Assembly (NCBI GenBank): GCA_044450345.1
Contig: JBIOIY010000002.1
Location: 32,001 to 96,000, forward strand
Length of the DNA: 64,000 bases
Origin: Thermodesulfovibrionales bacterium
GTDB lineage: Bacteria; Nitrospirota; Thermodesulfovibrionia; Thermodesulfovibrionales; UBA6898
Direction: 5' to 3'
A program made the position numbers. This document shows, piece by piece, positions 36,001-42,000 of this stretch (positions are counted from its first letter, which is position 1; the number at the start of each line of letters is the position of its first letter).

Positions 36001-39000
36001 TTACGCTGAAACCCGGAACAGAGTATGACTTTCCGGTTCAGACAGTCGATTCGACTCAAAAAATGCGACGCCCTGTTTCAAAGTATTTAAACCATGTTTA
36101 CGGAATGACGGAGGTGGGGGGCACCCAGTATCTATTACTTGCCGGGGTGCCGTTTGATTGGCTGGGATTCAACAAGAATATCAAGGACTCTTACCTTCCC
36201 GATCTTACCTGGGCGTACATAGCCAAGATTCCGGCTGTGATCGCAGGGATAATCCTCGCCGGCACAGCGACCTGGGCCGTTACCAGGAACAAGAACAAAG
36301 ATAAGGAGGGATGACCATATGAACCAGCGAGACATTAAACTGATCACTCCTACCACTGTGGTGCTGCTTCTTATCATTGCCGTTGGCGCTGTCGCTGGCC
36401 TGTACCGGGTGTTCTTCGGACTCGGGGCATCAACGCATCTCAATGATGTATGGCCGTGGGGTTTATGGATATCCTTCGATGTCTTGGGCGGCGTTGCTCT
36501 GGCAGCAGGAGGGTTTGTCATTGCAGGAGCGGTTTATATTTTGAACTGGAAGAAATACAAGCCGATTGTAAGGCCGGCGATACTGAACGCATTTTTCGGT
36601 TATCTCCTGGCGGCTACTTCAATAACGCTTGACATTGGGCTTCCCTGGCGCATATATCACCCATTGATTATGTGGCAGATCAACTCTATTATGTTCATTG
36701 TGGCCATCCATGTGGTGCTTTATACGACCACTCTTGCTACAGAGTCCAGTCCGATGTTCTTTGAGAAACTCAAAATGCCGAGGGCCCTGAACTTCATTCA
36801 AAGGATTATGGTAGGCATAGTCTTGTTCGGCGTGCTTCTTTCCACGCTGCACCAGTCATCACTCGGAGCGGTCTTTCTTATCGCTCCGACGAAAGTGTCA
36901 CCCCTTTGGTACAGCAGCAAGCTCCCTTACATGTTTCTTGTCTCTGCAGTAGTGCTGGCGCTTTCAATGGTGAGCTTTGAGACGATTTTGAGCGGAAGGG
37001 TCTTTAAACATAAGCCCCCCATGGACATCCTCCACGGCATGGCAAGGGGTTCTTTGATTGTTATCGGTCTTTATTTGTTCCTGAAAATATGGGACCTGGT
37101 TAGAGGCCCTGGCATAGGACTGGCGTTTAACGGGAGTCTGACTTCCAATATGTACCTCCTTGAAATGATCATAGGGATTATTCTTCCCTTTGTATTACTT
37201 CTGAATAGCGGCGTTAGGACCCGGCTAAACGGCATTTTTTGCGTCAATATACTCGTGATAATCGGAACCGTGCTCAATCGTATGAACGTCGGCATCTTCA
37301 GCATGGTCGAATACAACGGTTTGATGGGGCGTGATTATTTCCCTTCGTGGATGGAAATCGCGGTCACGATGGCGATGGTGGCCTTTGCAGTTTTGGGATT
37401 TAAAGTCTGCGTAAAATACTTGAATGTTCTGAAACTGGAGCACTGACTATGCGTATGAACTATAGCAGGAAAATATATTTCAGGAGGTGGTCGACATGGC
37501 AAAAAGGATAACAGTTGATCCCGTAACAAGAATAGAGGGACATCTGAGGATAGACTGCGAAGTTGATGGCGGCAAAGTCACAAATGCCTGGTCCTCCGGG
37601 CAGATGTGGCGAGGGATAGAGGTTATCCTCAAGGGACGCGATCCGCGCGATGCATGGTTATTCACACAGCGCTTCTGCGGCGTCTGAACGTCGGTCCACG
37701 CACTGGCTTCAGTGCGTTCGGTAGAAAACGCCCTGGGGATGGAGATCCCTGTGAATGCGCAATATATCAGGAACATGATTATGGGCGCTCACGCAACACA
37801 TGACCATATCGTCCATTTTTATCATCTTGCCGCTCTCGACTGGGTAGATATCGTCTCAGCCCTTAAGGCCGATGCAAGAGCGGTTTCGAACCTGGGCCAG
37901 AAGCTTTCTCCATGGACGGGGAACAGTTACGCCGAGGTCAAGGCATCTCAGGACAGGCTGAAGACTTTTGTGGGTTCAGGTCAGCTCGGTGTGTATGGAA
38001 GCGGCTATTGGGGCCATCCTGCAATGAAGCTTGCGCCCGAGGTGAACATGCTTGCGGCCCATCATTATCTTCAGGCGCTTGAGTACCAAAGGGAGATCAA
38101 TAAGGTCGTCGGCATTCTCGGCTCGAAGACGCCGCATATACAGAACGTGGCCGTAGGAGGAGTTTCCAATGCCATCAATCTGGACAGCCCTTCGACCCTC
38201 AACATGGAAAGGCTGTACTATATCAAGACGCTGATTGATAAGGTCGGTGACTTTGTTGAAAATGTGCTGCTCGTGGACACTGCCGCAGTCGCTGCGTTTT
38301 ATGCGGAGTGGACAAAGTACGGCTCTGGCGTGATGAATTACCTTTCGGTTCCAGATATGCCAATGGACACTAAGGGTACGACCTTTGCGCTTCCAGGCGG
38401 ATACATCCCCGGTGGAGATGTGGGTAAATTCCAGGCGATAAAGAGTTATCAGGACCCGTTCTTCCGCGATAATGTCAAGGAGAGCATCAAACATTCCTGG
38501 TACGACGGCGACTGGGACCGCCACCCGTACGAGGAAGATACGCTTCCGAAATATACCGACTTCCAGGACAAAGGAAAATATTCATGGGTTAAGTCGCCGA
38601 CTTTCAAGGGTAAACCGGCACAGGTGGGGCCGTTGGCCAATGTTCTCTGTATGTTTGCAGCGGGCCACGAGCCGACAAAAAAGTACGCCACGAAGATGCT
38701 TGATACTATAAGCGCCCTGGCCGGTACTAAAGTCGGGATTGCAGCGCTCCACTCGACAATCGGCAGGATCGGTGCCAGGTCAATCAGGTGTGCGGTACTC
38801 TACGATACCCTAAAATCGCAGTGGCAGGCGCTCGTAGAGAATATCTCGAAGGGAGATGTCAAGACCTTCAACCACCCGACTTTCCCAGCGGGCGAACAGA
38901 GGGGTTATGGTTTTCACGAGGCCCCAAGGGGCGCTCTCTCTCATTGGATCGTCATTAAGGACGGGGCGATAAAGAATTATCAGGCCGTAGTGCCTTCGAC

Positions 39001-42000
39001 ATGGAACGCCGGCCCCAGGAACAGCGAAGATGCATTAGGGCCTTATGAGGCTTCCCTTATCGGAAACCCCGTGATAGACGCTGAAAAGCCTCTCGAGGTA
39101 TTGCGGACCGTGCATTCGTTTGACCCCTGTCTTGCATGCGCCATACATATGGTCGACAAGACTAATAATGAAATCGTGAAGGTCAAGGCGGTCTGATAAG
39201 AGCGTGAATGTCCTTGTACTCGGGATAGGCAATGTCCTTATGATGGACGACAGCGTCGGAGTGCGTGCTATCGAGGAGCTCGAGAAGAGATACTGCTTCC
39301 CGCAGGGCGTGGAGCTTCTCGACGGCGGTACTTCGGGCATCGAACTTCTCTCGTATATAGGCGACCGCGATCATTTGATCATAATTGACGCGCTGAAATC
39401 GGGACTTCCTCCTGGGACGGTCGTGAAAGTGGAAGGCGAAGATGTTCCCGCAAGGTTCATGACGAGAATATCGCCGCACCAGCTAGGTCTGTCCGATGTA
39501 CTTGCGGCAGCCACAATTTCCGGCCAGCTCCCGAGAAATTTGGTGCTTTTCGGGGTCGAACCCAAAACAGTCAGGCTCGGCCTTGGCCTCTCAAATGAGG
39601 TCAGGGCGAGCCTTGACAAGTTGGTGAGCACGGTGATTGAAGAACTCGGACGCATCGGATGTGCGGTGGAACCTGCTGAGATCGTGTCAACCAGGAGTAC
39701 ACTATGGGAGGCTCTTGGGTAATGATATATAGTGTCTCATTGTCGTTAGAGTCTAACCTGCCGGTCACTGCCTAATGTATTCCTGCCTCTAAAAAAAAGG
39801 CCGGGCATCTTCTTCGTACCGAAGGTTCTGATAGATACAATAACCATCATTTCCGGCAAAGCACGTCGACAAACATTATTACCGGCGTGATTTTTCGGCG
39901 GCAATCGCGATATAATAGAATATGAGAATTTTGTTGGTAGAAGACGAGCAGAATGTGGCCTCTTTTCTGAAGAAGGGACTCGAAGAGGAATTTTATACAG
40001 TAGATGTTGCAGAGGATGGGGGAGACGGTTTTGCCATGGCTACTTCCAAGGAATATGACTGCATCATTTTGGACGTAATGCTGCCCGAGATCAGCGGTAT
40101 CGAGATATGCAGGAAATTGAGAAGCTCGAACGTAAAAACGCCGATACTCATGCTCACGGCCCTCGATTCCGTGGGCAGCAAGGTCGAAGGACTTGAAAGC
40201 GGCGCCGACGATTATCTTACAAAACCATTCGCCTTTTCAGAGCTCCTTGCGCGGATAAGGGCATTGTTGAGGAGAGCACCGGATTCGCTGAGCGAGCTTA
40301 CACTGAACGATTTGCGCATGGATCTTTTGTCTAGGAGAGTTTTTAGAGGTGAACAGGAGATCATTCTCACGCAGAAGAGCTTTGCAATCCTCGAATATTT
40401 TTTAAGAAACAAGGGGAGGGTGTTGTCCAGAACACAGATTATTGAGAACATCTGGGGATATAATTTTGATCCGAATACCAACGTAGTGGACGTACATATA
40501 AAGTTTCTGAGAGAAAAAATAGACAAGGAATTCAATAAGAAATTGATTCATACGGTCAGGGGATCGGGGTATGTACTGAAGGCCGAAGATGATAGTCAGG
40601 ACCTTTAGGTTAAGGCTGACCATAATCTACACGCTCGTAGTTGCGGGAATACTTTCCGTGTTTGCGACTGCGATTTACTTTCAATACAGGCACAGCTTGT
40701 CGAAAGAGATTGATAGCTACCTGATTAAGGAAGCAAACGAGGAGATCCTCGTCGAGAGCAACCCTAAACTCCCCCCTAAAAACCGCCAGGTCATAAAGAG
40801 GTTCGGTGACGAGTTCTTTGAGGTCATCGACAACAAAGGGCAGGTACTCATTACGTCGCTGAGCGCAGAGAATCAGCGCTGGCCGCTCGACAGCGAAACG
40901 CTGCTGAAAGCATTCAAGGGGGTTCCCCAGTTCAGCACCGTTTATTTCAGAGGTGCGAATTACAGGATCCTTTACTTTCCGATCAACGCGGAAAAGATAT
41001 TGAGGATAGTCTTGTCCCTGGGAGAGATCGAGGGAAGCATCAGAAGCCTGAGGAATCTCTTTCTCCTCTCTCTCCCGTTTGTCGTGTCTATGTCCTTCGC
41101 CGCCAGTTGGTTTCTTTCCGGCAAGGCCCTGTCGCCTATTATAAAAATCAGCTCGCTTGCGAGTCAGGTAAGAGAGGGAAGGCTGGTCAAGAGGATTGAA
41201 ATGGAGACAAAAGGTAAAGAAATTCAGGACCTGGTGGTCATCTTCAACGAGATGCTCGACGGCATCCAGCACTCTGTCGAGTCGCAAAAGCGATTCACCG
41301 CGGCGGTTTCGCACGAGGTGAGATCTCCCCTTACCTCCTTAAGGGGGAACATCGAAGTAGCATTAAGGAAGAAAAGGACCCCGGAGGAGTATGAGGACAT
41401 CTTAAATACAAACCTTTCCGATATTATAAGACTTTCAAGAATTACGGATAACCTCCTTTTCTTTACCAAGGCCGATAATAATATCCTCGAATTGAGGAAG
41501 CAGTGGTTTGAGGTCTCACATCTACTGCAAAATATTGTTGAGCGCCTAAAATACAGGGCTTCAGCTGCGGGGATCACAATCTCTGAGTCTTATCAGGACG
41601 GGATCGAGATGCGCGGCGATCTTGATCTCCTCGAACAGGCATTTTCCAATATCGTCGAGAACGCAATCAATTATACTCCTTCCGGAGGGATGATATCGGT
41701 GACTTCGAATAGAGAAGATGATAAGATCATCATTTCGATCAGCGATACGGGGATTGGAATCCCTGAAGACGAAATACCCCACTTATTTGAAAGGTTTTAC
41801 AGGGTCAATAAGGAGCGTTCGAGAAAGTCAGGGGGGACGGGACTCGGTCTCTCTATAACAGAGTGGGTCCTCAACGCCCATGACGGAAAGATTGAGGTAA
41901 AGAGTACCCTGGGGGCGGGCAGCGAGTTCATTACCTCATTCCCGGTCTCTAAGGATTAAACTCACCCGCTTCTTTCATCTCTCTACAGTCCACCGGGGAT

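Follow-up and report, generated by a model that had tools for sequence, protein, structure and literature searches.

The large subunit of the hydrogenase encoded in the window (the whole stretch of 64,000 nucleotides that was analysed) is very probably the catalytic subunit of a quinone-linked H2-uptake enzyme of the Hyb type, periplasmic and anchored in the membrane, in which the in-frame UGA at codon 64 is recoded as selenocysteine (Sec). The reading of this TGA as Sec was strongly supported by comparisons at the sequence level. The codon falls on the second ligand of the Ni-binding motif at the N-terminal end, and the three other ligands are Cys.

Catalytic Subunit and Its Operon

The coding frame of the large subunit was evaluated by translation, and the features of the locus are collected in Table 1. 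Codon 64 was the sole internal TGA of the plus-strand frame at 37496–39196. Under genetic code table 11 the frame was broken into two ORFs, 37487–37687 (66 aa) and 37712–39196 (494 aa), which bears out the survey's finding that one gene had been miscalled as two. PF00374 matched residues 39–551 of the complete frame (E 3.6e-212). The best match in a phmmer search against PDB chains was 6en9_L, the large chain of E. coli Hyd-2 (E 1e-234, residues 1–565). The alignment was ungapped around the motif and placed codon 64 opposite Cys64 of RICGVC, so the earlier assignment of the TGA to the second Cys of RxCGxC was correct. The UGA is aligned with Cys in homologues, as expected of a selenoprotein gene, and its position is that of the CXXU type, in which the UGA replaces the codon of the second Cys in the N-terminal CXXC. 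The C-terminal motif was DPCLACAIH without Sec, as previously read, and not the DPUxxC of the HysA type, in which Sec comes first. The HysA model NF045518 has a cut-off of 780 and scored 352.6 bits, and the best NCBIfam model was that for the 'hydrogenase 2 large subunit', NF007778 (875.9 bits; equivalog cut-off 969). The known behaviour of HybD/HyaD-type proteases suggests that the tail would be cleaved after His551.

TABLE 1. Positions of the hydrogenase genes and of the elements discussed, counted along the window.
Feature	Position	Strand	Basis
Hydrogenase small subunit (HybO-like)	34145..35314	+	Tat motif SRRDFLKF, C-terminal hydrophobic anchor; Pfam Oxidored_q6 and NiFe_hyd_SSU_C
HybA-like 4Fe-4S ferredoxin-type subunit	35265..36314	+	Pfam Fer4_11; NF008134 HybA, 355.7 bits, above the 263-bit cut-off
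HybB-like NrfD-family integral membrane (quinone-side) subunit	36319..37446	+	Pfam NrfD
Large subunit (HybC-like)	37496..39196	+	566 codons and TGA stop, single frame by translation
N-terminal Ni-binding motif R59-F-C61-G-V-U64-T-S-V-H68	37670..37699	+	Aligned to HybC RICGVCTTTH
In-frame UGA, codon 64, proposed Sec at the Ni-Fe bridging ligand position	37685..37687	+	Translation, HybC alignment, TGA in 25/30 best orthologues
Proposed SECIS hairpin, 8-bp stem, GCUU loop	37698..37717	+	Centroid fold
C-terminal Ni-binding motif D543-P-C545-L-A-C548-A-I-H551	39122..39148	+	All Cys, TGC codons, without TGA
C-terminal extension, 15 residues past His551	39149..39193	+	Sequence read; expected substrate of the maturation endopeptidase, cleavage predicted
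HybD/HyaD-family maturation endopeptidase	39204..39722	+	Pfam HycI; TIGR00140 hupD, 155.3 bits, above the 151.8-bit cut-off

According to its best matches and gene content, the enzyme is a Group 1c-like Hyb-type uptake hydrogenase. The large subunit belongs to the NiFeSe_Hases family, has both Ni-binding motifs and is closest to HybC. Its genes are ordered as small subunit, HybA-like subunit, NrfD/HybB-like subunit, large subunit and HycI-family protease, and a small subunit with a Tat signal is accompanied by HybA and by an NrfD-type subunit instead of a cytochrome b. The best NCBIfam match of the small subunit was 'hydrogenase 2 small subunit' (480 bits, under the 659-bit equivalog cut-off). 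The HybB-like subunit scored almost equally with HmcC (281.6 bits) and PRK10881, the Ni/Fe-hydrogenase cytochrome b subunit (281.2 bits), both below their cut-offs. Because most of the NCBIfam Hyd-2 equivalog cut-offs were missed, the enzyme is a distant orthologue of hydrogenase-2. The large subunit was the single PF00374 match in the 3.19-Mb assembly and hence, as had been noted before, the only NiFeSe_Hases locus of the genome.

Downstream Hairpin and Selenocysteine Machinery

A hairpin with the sequence ACGCACUG-GCUU-CAGUGCGU was located after a gap of 10 nt from the UGA. The survey's hairpin was therefore present, but its 7-bp version begins one base later than the 8-bp stem. The loop starts with G and lies 18 nt past the UGA; in two formate dehydrogenase genes of the same genome the loops are also at 18 nt and contain G. 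The UGA-to-loop distance in the bSECISearch model is reportedly 16–37 nt. The hairpin thus has both the loop distance and the G at loop position 1 or 2 that suit a bacterial SECIS.

The RNA element at 37698–37717 is under selection. Synonymous-codon entropy was scanned in 25 sequences of the sub-clade to which the window belongs, and the seven codons from codon 68, which span the hairpin, had the lowest value of 468 such segments (0.25; gene mean, 1.30). Moreover, the 11 segments of lowest entropy all overlapped codons 63–79. Among 26 sub-clade sequences, 96.6% of the hairpin cells were paired; five of the eight pairs were invariant and none had changed on both sides, so compensatory changes were absent from this set. 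The 56-nt fold was no more stable than its shuffles (z 0.12), and no Rfam family matched the hairpin. When the 47 Sec-type genes of the window's clade were folded together, RNAalifold gave no structure shared by all of them, and the hairpins occupied three different registers according to sub-clade. In the sister clade, 74 Sec-type genes chosen without regard to fit had 91.3% of the hairpin paired, compared with 83.6% in shuffles. The doubly changed cells numbered 33 against 12.2 expected, a value reached in none of 500 shuffles, and one pair occurred, among other types, as AU in 30 cases, UA in 17 and GC in 6. Of the 94 unique downstream segments of Sec type, 86 had a hairpin with 5 bp or more and G at loop position 1 or 2, compared with 7 of 14 Cys-type segments; the latter also fold, with at least 5 pairs in 14/14 and the loop G in 7/14.

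The genome was searched again for the Sec machinery, and tRNA-Sec, selA, selB and selD were all recovered, as the survey had reported. The tRNA-Sec at C4:78884-78981 has the anticodon UCA, discriminator G and a long extra arm (70.5 bits; cut-off, 47 bits). The selA and selB genes, both above their cut-offs, are on contig C20, and selD, also above its cut-off, carries a TGA of its own. Hence the complete selA, selB, selC and selD set of bacteria with selenoprotein genes was present. Furthermore, three genes of the formate dehydrogenase family, two of them above the family cut-off, have one in-frame TGA each in the context R[IL]-U-H.

Distribution Among Relatives

Of the 30 best orthologous loci (72–100% identity), 25 had TGA at codon 64 and the other five TGC or TGT. 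The survey's count of 28 of 29 was not reproduced in this sample, and its RFUGVU variant of the first clade was not encountered among these 30 loci. The second clade, said to have TGA for both N-terminal ligands, was borne out in all 20 loci read. A DNA-pattern scan of one genome per species gave 80 loci, of which 79 were real large-subunit frames with TGA at this codon, labelled as several phyla. The C-terminal motif was readable in 66 of the 78 tallied and was all-Cys in every one. selA was found in 90 of the 94 genomes with the TGA form, and the other four were 77–89% complete. Among the rows listed, the families that have a homologue and lack selA (f23, f29 and f30) had TGA-free homologues only. 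Chance is excluded because the codon is conserved across more than 130 genes, although these counts overstate the support because related genomes are not independent. The best 120 database matches included 93 full-length proteins, all of them CxxC and up to 88% identical. Sec is dispensable in this scaffold, since close Cys-type orthologues are common, and no residue diagnostic of the Sec or Cys forms was found.

Alternative Readings of the UGA

The ability of Cys to serve at position 64, as in the close all-Cys orthologues, favours a reading in which UGA64 is recoded via SelB and the SECIS but receives Cys, always or under selenium limitation, and gives an all-Cys enzyme. The agent would be a tRNA-ReC (selC*)-type tRNA or a mischarged tRNA-Sec. 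According to PMC13582414, tRNA-ReC-like tRNAs are present in some genomes whose Group 4 hydrogenases are of the N-terminal Sec type, mostly UXXU, and work cited there found that they decode UGA as Cys with a SECIS; the same paper puts them at only about 2.3% of CXXU/UXXC-type genomes. Insertion of Cys is improbable here, since a single tRNA-Sec-like gene exceeded the Rfam cut-off, with the canonical G discriminator and UCA anticodon. The sub-threshold matches were ordinary Leu, Ser, Tyr, Trp, Gly and Arg tRNAs, and the sole tRNA-Cys was a normal 76-nt GCA tRNA. A tRNA gene could be missing from the assembly, because it is 91% complete and has 30 tRNAs.

It is highly improbable that the TGA is a true stop, in a split or decaying gene or in a two-piece enzyme of a 63-residue peptide and a 494-residue protein. 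Gene callers do yield exactly two ORFs, the database holds many truncated entries of 485 or 494 residues, and split large subunits (VhuA/VhuU) are known in methanogens. The VhuA/VhuU pair is also given in the table of the 2026 selenoproteome review. However, a stop at codon 64 would strip one of the four metal ligands from both pieces, and the TSVHALAS codons, which separate the TGA from the next start, are in frame, conserved and aligned to HybC. The TGA recurs in more than 130 genes of several labelled phyla with the frame otherwise undisrupted, and it co-occurs with selA. Moreover, the genome's sole PF00374 hydrogenase has its operon and protease intact. The use of TGA as a general sense codon in an alternative genetic code, or an assembly error, has a negligible probability, and support for either was not found. 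The same gene terminates with TGA, and its neighbours are of normal length under table 11. The TGA was observed in dozens of independent assemblies, and independent contigs from peat and soil DNA span the whole stretch at high identity, an observation on the stretch and not on codon 64 itself.

Comparison With Known Hydrogenases

E. coli hydrogenase-2 (HybO-HybA-HybB-HybC, Group 1c; PDB 6en9/6ehq) has the same gene set and order, the Tat motif on the small subunit and the C-terminal extension for proteolytic maturation. It has Cys64 where the present enzyme has UGA (Sec), and the host here is instead an anaerobe of the Nitrospirota. The Group 1a [NiFeSe] hydrogenases (Desulfomicrobium baculatum, 1cc1; Desulfovibrio vulgaris Hildenborough HysAB) are also periplasmic Group 1 enzymes with one UGA-encoded Sec among the Ni ligands and a SECIS inside the coding region. 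Their Sec replaces the C-terminal motif's first Cys (DPUxxC) and is a terminal Ni ligand, whereas the motif here is DPCLAC and the Sec would be second in the N-terminal motif. Their PDB matches were weak (about 1e-85, partial stretches). They use soluble cytochrome c3 (PMC8020662), unlike the predicted route to quinone through HybA/HybB.

The survey held that the C-terminal terminal ligand is the one used in every described [NiFeSe] hydrogenase. This was not borne out by PMC13582414, PMC8020662 and PMC1976440, and the survey's claim of novelty was overstated. It was right that UxxC is the sole form listed in the 2026 selenoproteome review, but the literature extends beyond that review. In 2007, a new position of Sec that gives CxxU was already noted for an FrhA-family hydrogenase (PMC1976440), and 'purported examples' of a substituted bridging Cys are mentioned in PMC8020662. 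PMC13582414 attributes to Baltazar et al. 2011 (Eur J Inorg Chem) an N-terminal CXXU in two Group 1 sequences, the same kind of site as here. That position conflicts with PMC8020662, which cites the same work for a substituted C579, the bridging Cys at the C-terminal end. Takano et al. (2026, PMC13582414) describe 47 sequences of Group 4 in which the N-terminal motif is CXXU, UXXC or UXXU, found by UGA read-through. As in the present gene, Sec is confined to the N-terminal motif, the SECIS has G at loop position 1 or 2, selABCD co-occur, and the Sec and Cys forms have a mosaic distribution. The Group 4 enzymes are energy-converting complexes from nine phyla without Nitrospirota, in contrast to the Group 1 uptake enzyme here, and HydDB Groups 1–3 were left out of the analysis by Takano et al. 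The same paper gives bridging of Ni and Fe as the prediction for Sec in the N-terminal CXXU, in agreement with the bridging position earlier assigned to residue 64. In the literature, protein-level evidence of Sec was not found for any natural N-terminal Sec hydrogenase.

The engineered E. coli Hyd-1 C79U (Evans et al. 2021, PMC8020662) has Sec at the homologous position of a Group 1 enzyme and is active. It is artificial, in that insertion was programmed by UAG and driven by EF-Tu, and its Group 1d scaffold is O2-tolerant. It retained 13% of native activity, the best among four Sec variants, with a lower KM for H2 and an activation enthalpy raised by about 10 kJ/mol, and was nearly inactive at 10% O2 (PMC8020662).

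Proposed Mechanism and Implications

We infer that Sec is inserted when the ribosome reaches UGA64, where SelB-GTP with Sec-tRNA(Sec) would bind the hairpin and hand over the residue. In the mature enzyme, a selenolate would replace the thiolate of the second N-terminal ligand and bridge Ni and Fe, as homology and the literature predict, and C61, C545 and C548 would stay cysteines. Metal insertion would come first, and the adjoining protease would then cut off the 15-residue tail. The small subunit with its Tat signal would carry the large subunit along in export, and the quinone pool would receive the electrons by way of the HybA-like and HybB-like subunits. Activity is expected by analogy with Hyd-1 C79U, and the KM for H2 may be lower, without a gain in O2 tolerance; the natural enzyme may have changes that compensate for Sec. 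The breadth of this site in Group 1, the occurrence of a UxxU form there and the way in which routine annotation splits these genes are apparently undescribed. Barely described, and with its natural enzyme never studied, the arrangement is common in uncultured bacteria.

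Large-Subunit Gene and Operon

The large-subunit gene formed a single frame of 566 codons once the TGA at codon 64 was translated. The standard code cuts this frame into ORFs of 66 and 494 residues, which are the two miscalled genes of the survey's finding. Translation, alignment and the reading of the operon all bore out one frame with a TGA at codon 64, and this observation is correct. The full-length product matched Pfam NiFeSe_Hases over residues 39–551 (E 3.6e-212), and the nearest solved structure was the large chain of E. coli hydrogenase-2, 6en9_L (E 1e-234; residues 1–565 vs 1–566). 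Codon 64 was aligned with Cys64 of RICGVC in 6en9_L, where the window's gene has RFCGV-U-TSVH. At the C-terminal end, the motif reads DPCLACAIH, and 15 further residues precede a TGA stop.

The features are listed in the table. By gene content the enzyme belongs to the Hyb-type Group 1 hydrogenases and works like them; maturation, Tat export and electron flow to quinone would be provided for by the gene set. No second PF00374 match was found in the assembly (3.19 Mb, 91% complete). A small mono-haem cytochrome c is encoded just 5' of the operon. Directly 3' of the operon come an OmpR-type response regulator and a HAMP/HisKA histidine kinase, which may regulate it.

Features of the hydrogenase locus (window positions) and of the TGA-containing genes elsewhere in the genome (contig:positions)
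Feature	Position	Strand	Remark
Mono-haem cytochrome c	33643-33978	+	111 aa
Small subunit	34145-35314		Twin-arginine motif SRRDFLKF
HybA-like iron-sulfur protein	35265-36314		Above its NCBIfam cut-off
NrfD/HybB-like membrane protein	36319-37446		Pfam NrfD; NCBIfam matches below cut-offs
Large subunit	37496-39196	+	NiFeSe_Hases; closest to 6en9_L
In-frame TGA (codon 64)	37685-37687	+	Proposed Sec
Hairpin	37698-37717		8 bp
HybD/HyaD-type protease	39204-39722		TIGR00140 above cut-off
Response regulator and histidine kinase	39922-41959	+	OmpR type; HAMP/HisKA
Formate-dehydrogenase-family gene	C2:185974-189135	-	One in-frame TGA
Formate-dehydrogenase-family gene	C38:23028-26198	-	One in-frame TGA
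Formate-dehydrogenase-family gene	C26:23062-23844	+	One in-frame TGA
selD	C28:7518-8441	-	One in-frame TGA

Selenocysteine Machinery of the Genome

A single tRNA-Sec was found, with anticodon UCA, discriminator G and a long extra arm. It was the sole Rfam tRNA-Sec match over the cut-off (70.5 bits), and the sub-threshold matches were ordinary tRNAs. The selA gene adjoins selB on contig 20, and selD itself carries an in-frame TGA. In each of the three formate-dehydrogenase-family genes, two of which scored above the family cut-off, the TGA occupies the canonical Sec position (...R[IL]-U-H...); therefore, Sec decoding is in use in this organism. The formate dehydrogenase (FDH) hairpins have GGUCU-type loops 18–23 nt after the UGA.

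Hairpin Downstream of Codon 64

In the window's gene, an 8-bp hairpin, ACGCACUG-GCUU-CAGUGCGU, starts 10 nt after the UGA. Its loop begins 18 nt after the UGA with a G, and this distance and a G-containing loop were also present in two FDH hairpins of the same genome. Across the 26 sequences of the window's sub-clade, 96.6% of the cells were paired and five of the eight pairs were invariant; no pair was altered on both sides, i.e., no compensatory change was found. The synonymous-codon entropy was calculated for 25 sub-clade genes aligned without indels. The lowest value of 468 windows belonged to the 7-codon window from codon 68, which is exactly the hairpin (0.25 vs a gene mean of 1.30), and each of the 11 lowest-entropy windows overlapped codons 63–79. 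The location of this minimum indicates that the hairpin is under selection. The fold of the 56 nt after the UGA was nothing unusual against shuffles (z 0.12), a value that is not informative alone, and an Rfam scan of 37600–37800 gave only two chance-level matches (E 1.2 and E 2.1).

Covariation was tested in the second clade, the Group 1 relatives about 50% identical to the window's protein, with 74 Sec-type genes chosen regardless of how well they fitted. The helix, of 6 bp with a CGUG[AC] loop, was paired in 91.3% of the cells compared with 83.6% in shuffles. Moreover, 33 cells were doubly changed against 12.2 expected, a value equalled in 0 of 500 shuffles. One pair occurred as AU (30), UA (17) and GC (6) and another as GC (52) and CG (6), and sliding of the helix partners gave 30–60% pairing. 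Some compensatory changes, at codons 71 and 75, are non-synonymous, which fits with the results for the window's clade, where two of the top five positions associated with Sec or Cys (75 and 70) sit in codons of the hairpin region. Because these codons form the hairpin region, the association probably reflects a constraint on RNA and not on protein. No residue in the window's clade was diagnostic of Sec-type (47) versus Cys-type (98) proteins, the largest frequency difference being 0.74 with kinship ignored.

Other results cut against a simple picture of the hairpin. Hairpins occurred in three different registers in the window's whole clade, split by sub-clade in a post hoc, purely descriptive classification, and the Cys-type genes fold as well at this stretch (at least five pairs in 14 of 14). 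RNAalifold gave no common structure for all 47 Sec-type genes of this clade. A G in loop position 1 or 2 was present in 7 of 14 Cys-type and 86 of 94 unique Sec-type segments.

The UGA itself is pairable in many Sec-type genes, in a 5-bp hairpin UGAAC-NNNN-GUUCA (alignment A1, columns 1–14) that arises from codons U64-T65 and V67-H68 where V67 is GUU; this may be a coincidence of codon usage or may belong to the recoding signal. Two peat metatranscriptome contigs (37577–37770 and 37579–37742; X17 record 9 and X18 record 13) cross the UGA and the hairpin with 2–3 differences. They hint at expression in peat, short of proof of transcription and silent on decoding; the stretch is also covered by DNA contigs of peat and soil sequencing runs.

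Orthologues Within the Phylum and Decoding of UGA64

In a protein search, 190 of the 401 genomes of the window's phylum had a homologue. The second ligand was TGA in 25 and TGC/TGT in 5 of the 30 best loci (72–100% identity to the window), and the C-terminal motif was DPCLACA[IV]H throughout. The survey had also described a second clade with TGA at both N-terminal ligands and none at the C-terminal motif, which was confirmed in 20 of 20 loci with two TGA codons (about 50–52% identity; RIUGVUTTVH, C-terminal motif all-Cys). The loci with one TGA (about 47–51% identity; 11 of 12 such genomes read) were all R[IV]CGVU, and those free of TGA (9 rows, about 49–53% identity) were all CGVC. Among the matches listed, selA (E <= 1e-60) was present in 90 of 94 genomes with a TGA form, the four others being 77–89% complete, and the three families with a homologue and without selA (f23, f29, f30) had solely TGA-free homologues. 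These counts of TGA forms and selA come from kin that are not independent; they illustrate a pattern and are no test.

UGA64 is very likely read as selenocysteine. Insertion of Sec directed by SelB and a SECIS is highly probable and would place a selenolate in the Ni–Fe site as the second N-terminal ligand. Insertion of Cys at UGA64 by a tRNA-ReC-type tRNA is improbable; no such tRNA was found in the 91%-complete assembly. That UGA64 is a true stop in a split gene is more improbable still. An alternative genetic code or an assembly error is the faintest of these prospects. The gene's own terminator is TGA, as the stop 15 residues after DPCLACAIH ends the frame.

Public Annotation and Cysteine Forms

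Among the best 120 database relatives, 93 were full-length proteins, all CxxC, with identities of 72–88% (88% for the database match P0003). The other 27 (P0009, P0025, P0027 and 24 others; 86–95% identity) had 485 or 494 residues and begin past the TGA, being Sec forms that gene callers truncated. Therefore, Sec and Cys versions of the enzyme coexist at close range, and Sec is not indispensable to the scaffold. The Sec forms are unrecognised by public annotation.

Distribution Beyond the Phylum

A degenerate DNA pattern, [EQ]-R-x-[CU]-G-V-TGA-T-x-x-H, was scanned against one genome per species (185,579 species). At least 119 stretches matched and 80 loci were read, of which 79 were real large-subunit frames; the remaining locus, labelled Selenomonadaceae, was a chance match without such a frame. 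The frames read among the matches listed comprised 44 CxxU and 35 UxxU, one UxxU being cut at a contig end. Where the C-terminal motif was readable (66 of 78 tallied loci), it was always DPC[LMIV]AC, without Sec. According to the record titles, the 78 loci were labelled Chloroflexota (30), Nitrospirota (27), Thermodesulfobacteriota (10), Spirochaetota (2), Rokubacteria/Methylomirabilota (2), Nitrospinota (1) and unplaced (6), and some labels may be binning errors because all of these genomes are MAGs. The scan describes breadth and not frequency, since TGA was required by the pattern.

A FastTree tree was built from 133 complete proteins out of 148 motif-bearing loci, leaving off 12 incomplete loci and 3 with a stop in the N-terminal cut-out. 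Two clades were obtained. The window's clade had 52 rows (47 CxxU and 5 CxxC) with mixed labels (Nitrospirota, Thermodesulfobacteriota, Spirochaetota and Nitrospinota), and the second had 81 (50 UxxU, 24 CxxU and 7 CxxC) from Nitrospirota, Chloroflexota and Methylomirabilota. The tree requires the motif type to have changed at least 11 times; the direction is not readable because the sampling favours Sec forms and the tree is unrooted. The near-identical large subunits of loci L122 ("delta proteobacterium") and L127 ("Nitrospinaceae"), with end-branch lengths of 0.018 and 0.005, point either to a transfer of very recent date or to one MAG being wrongly binned or labelled.

A representative of the second clade (L204:6472-8181, minus strand) is of a Group 1 subtype different from the Hyb type. 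The genes for hypF and a small subunit adjoin it at one end, those for a cytochrome b (PF01292) and a protease at the other, and its closest structure was 3myr_B. RIUGVUTTVH with an all-Cys C-terminal motif was observed in the 20 phylum loci (L045–L064 among them) and in 35 from the pattern scan. UxxU genes, e.g., L052:1774-1821 (minus strand), have two UGA codons 9 nt apart and a single hairpin downstream; the start of its loop is about 23 nt from the second UGA and about 32 nt from the first, and both codons would depend on this one SECIS. Nickel in the UxxU form would be ligated by a terminal and a bridging selenium.

Comparison With Known Hydrogenases

The C-terminal motif of the window's enzyme is without Sec, which separates it from the classical [NiFeSe] (HysA-type) hydrogenases. 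The survey regarded its Sec position as unlike all described cases; this did not hold, as the N-terminal CXXU [NiFeSe] kind is already in print, in silico only. Hence, the enzyme belongs to a known but obscure, experimentally untouched kind. Two of the four Cys ligands are terminal and two bridging (Evans et al., 2021; PMC8020662). In a passage of Takano et al. (2026; PMC13582414), the Sec of the N-terminal CXXU motif is predicted to bridge Ni and Fe, and on this basis Sec64, as the second N-terminal ligand, would do so. Another passage there credits Baltazar et al. (2011) with two Group 1 and one Group 3 sequences with N-terminal CXXU; where PMC8020662 cites Baltazar et al. (2011), it is for the C-terminal bridging Cys instead. 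The same passages of PMC13582414 term UXXC and UXXU previously unrecognised and report UXXU for Group 4 only, with Groups 1–3 excluded from the data set.

A passage of PMC1976440 (2007) describes an FrhA-family hydrogenase with Sec at a new position (CxxU), the motif being unspecified in that passage. A rice-paddy Nitrospirae genome was annotated with a quinone-pool-linked "membrane-bound [NiFeSe] hydrogenase (HysLS)", Sec position not given (PMC5812927). The 2026 selenoproteome review gives only UxxC for hydrogenase large subunits, as the survey had stated. Beyond the cited papers and the unspecific annotation in PMC5812927, searches of the open literature gave no account of Sec in hydrogenases that are Hyb-type, of Group 1c or from Nitrospirota, nor of the breadth of N-terminal Sec or of UxxU in Group 1.

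The engineered E. coli Hyd-1 C79U variant had 13% of the native H2-oxidation rate, the best of four Sec variants; its KM for H2 was lower, its activation enthalpy was about 10 kJ/mol higher, and it was almost inactive at 10% O2 (PMC8020662). It is a plausible guess that Sec64 would tune the H2 affinity in a strict anaerobe and not serve O2 protection.

Implications

The wider pattern is a lead and the more interesting result: N-terminal Sec occurs widely in two Group 1 lineages, including as UxxU. On balance, N-terminal-Sec hydrogenases seem to be a large unsurveyed Group 1 class in at least six phyla by label, mis-annotated as split genes and comprising a Hyb-type CxxU lineage, which includes the window's gene, and a cytochrome b-linked CxxU/UxxU lineage. 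Because standard gene callers split such genes, uptake hydrogenases and selenium dependence are possibly under- or mis-called in metabolic reconstructions of Nitrospirota, Chloroflexota and Thermodesulfobacteriota from peat, soil, groundwater and sediment.

The high H2 production and fast recovery from O2 that set [NiFeSe] hydrogenases apart are ascribed to selenium at one terminal ligand. To our knowledge, data on selenium at other Ni–Fe positions come only from the engineered E. coli variant. If the wider pattern is true, nature has repeatedly put selenium away from the ligand to which these properties are credited, and natural enzymes with selenium at the bridging or at both N-terminal ligands would test its role elsewhere in the Ni–Fe site.
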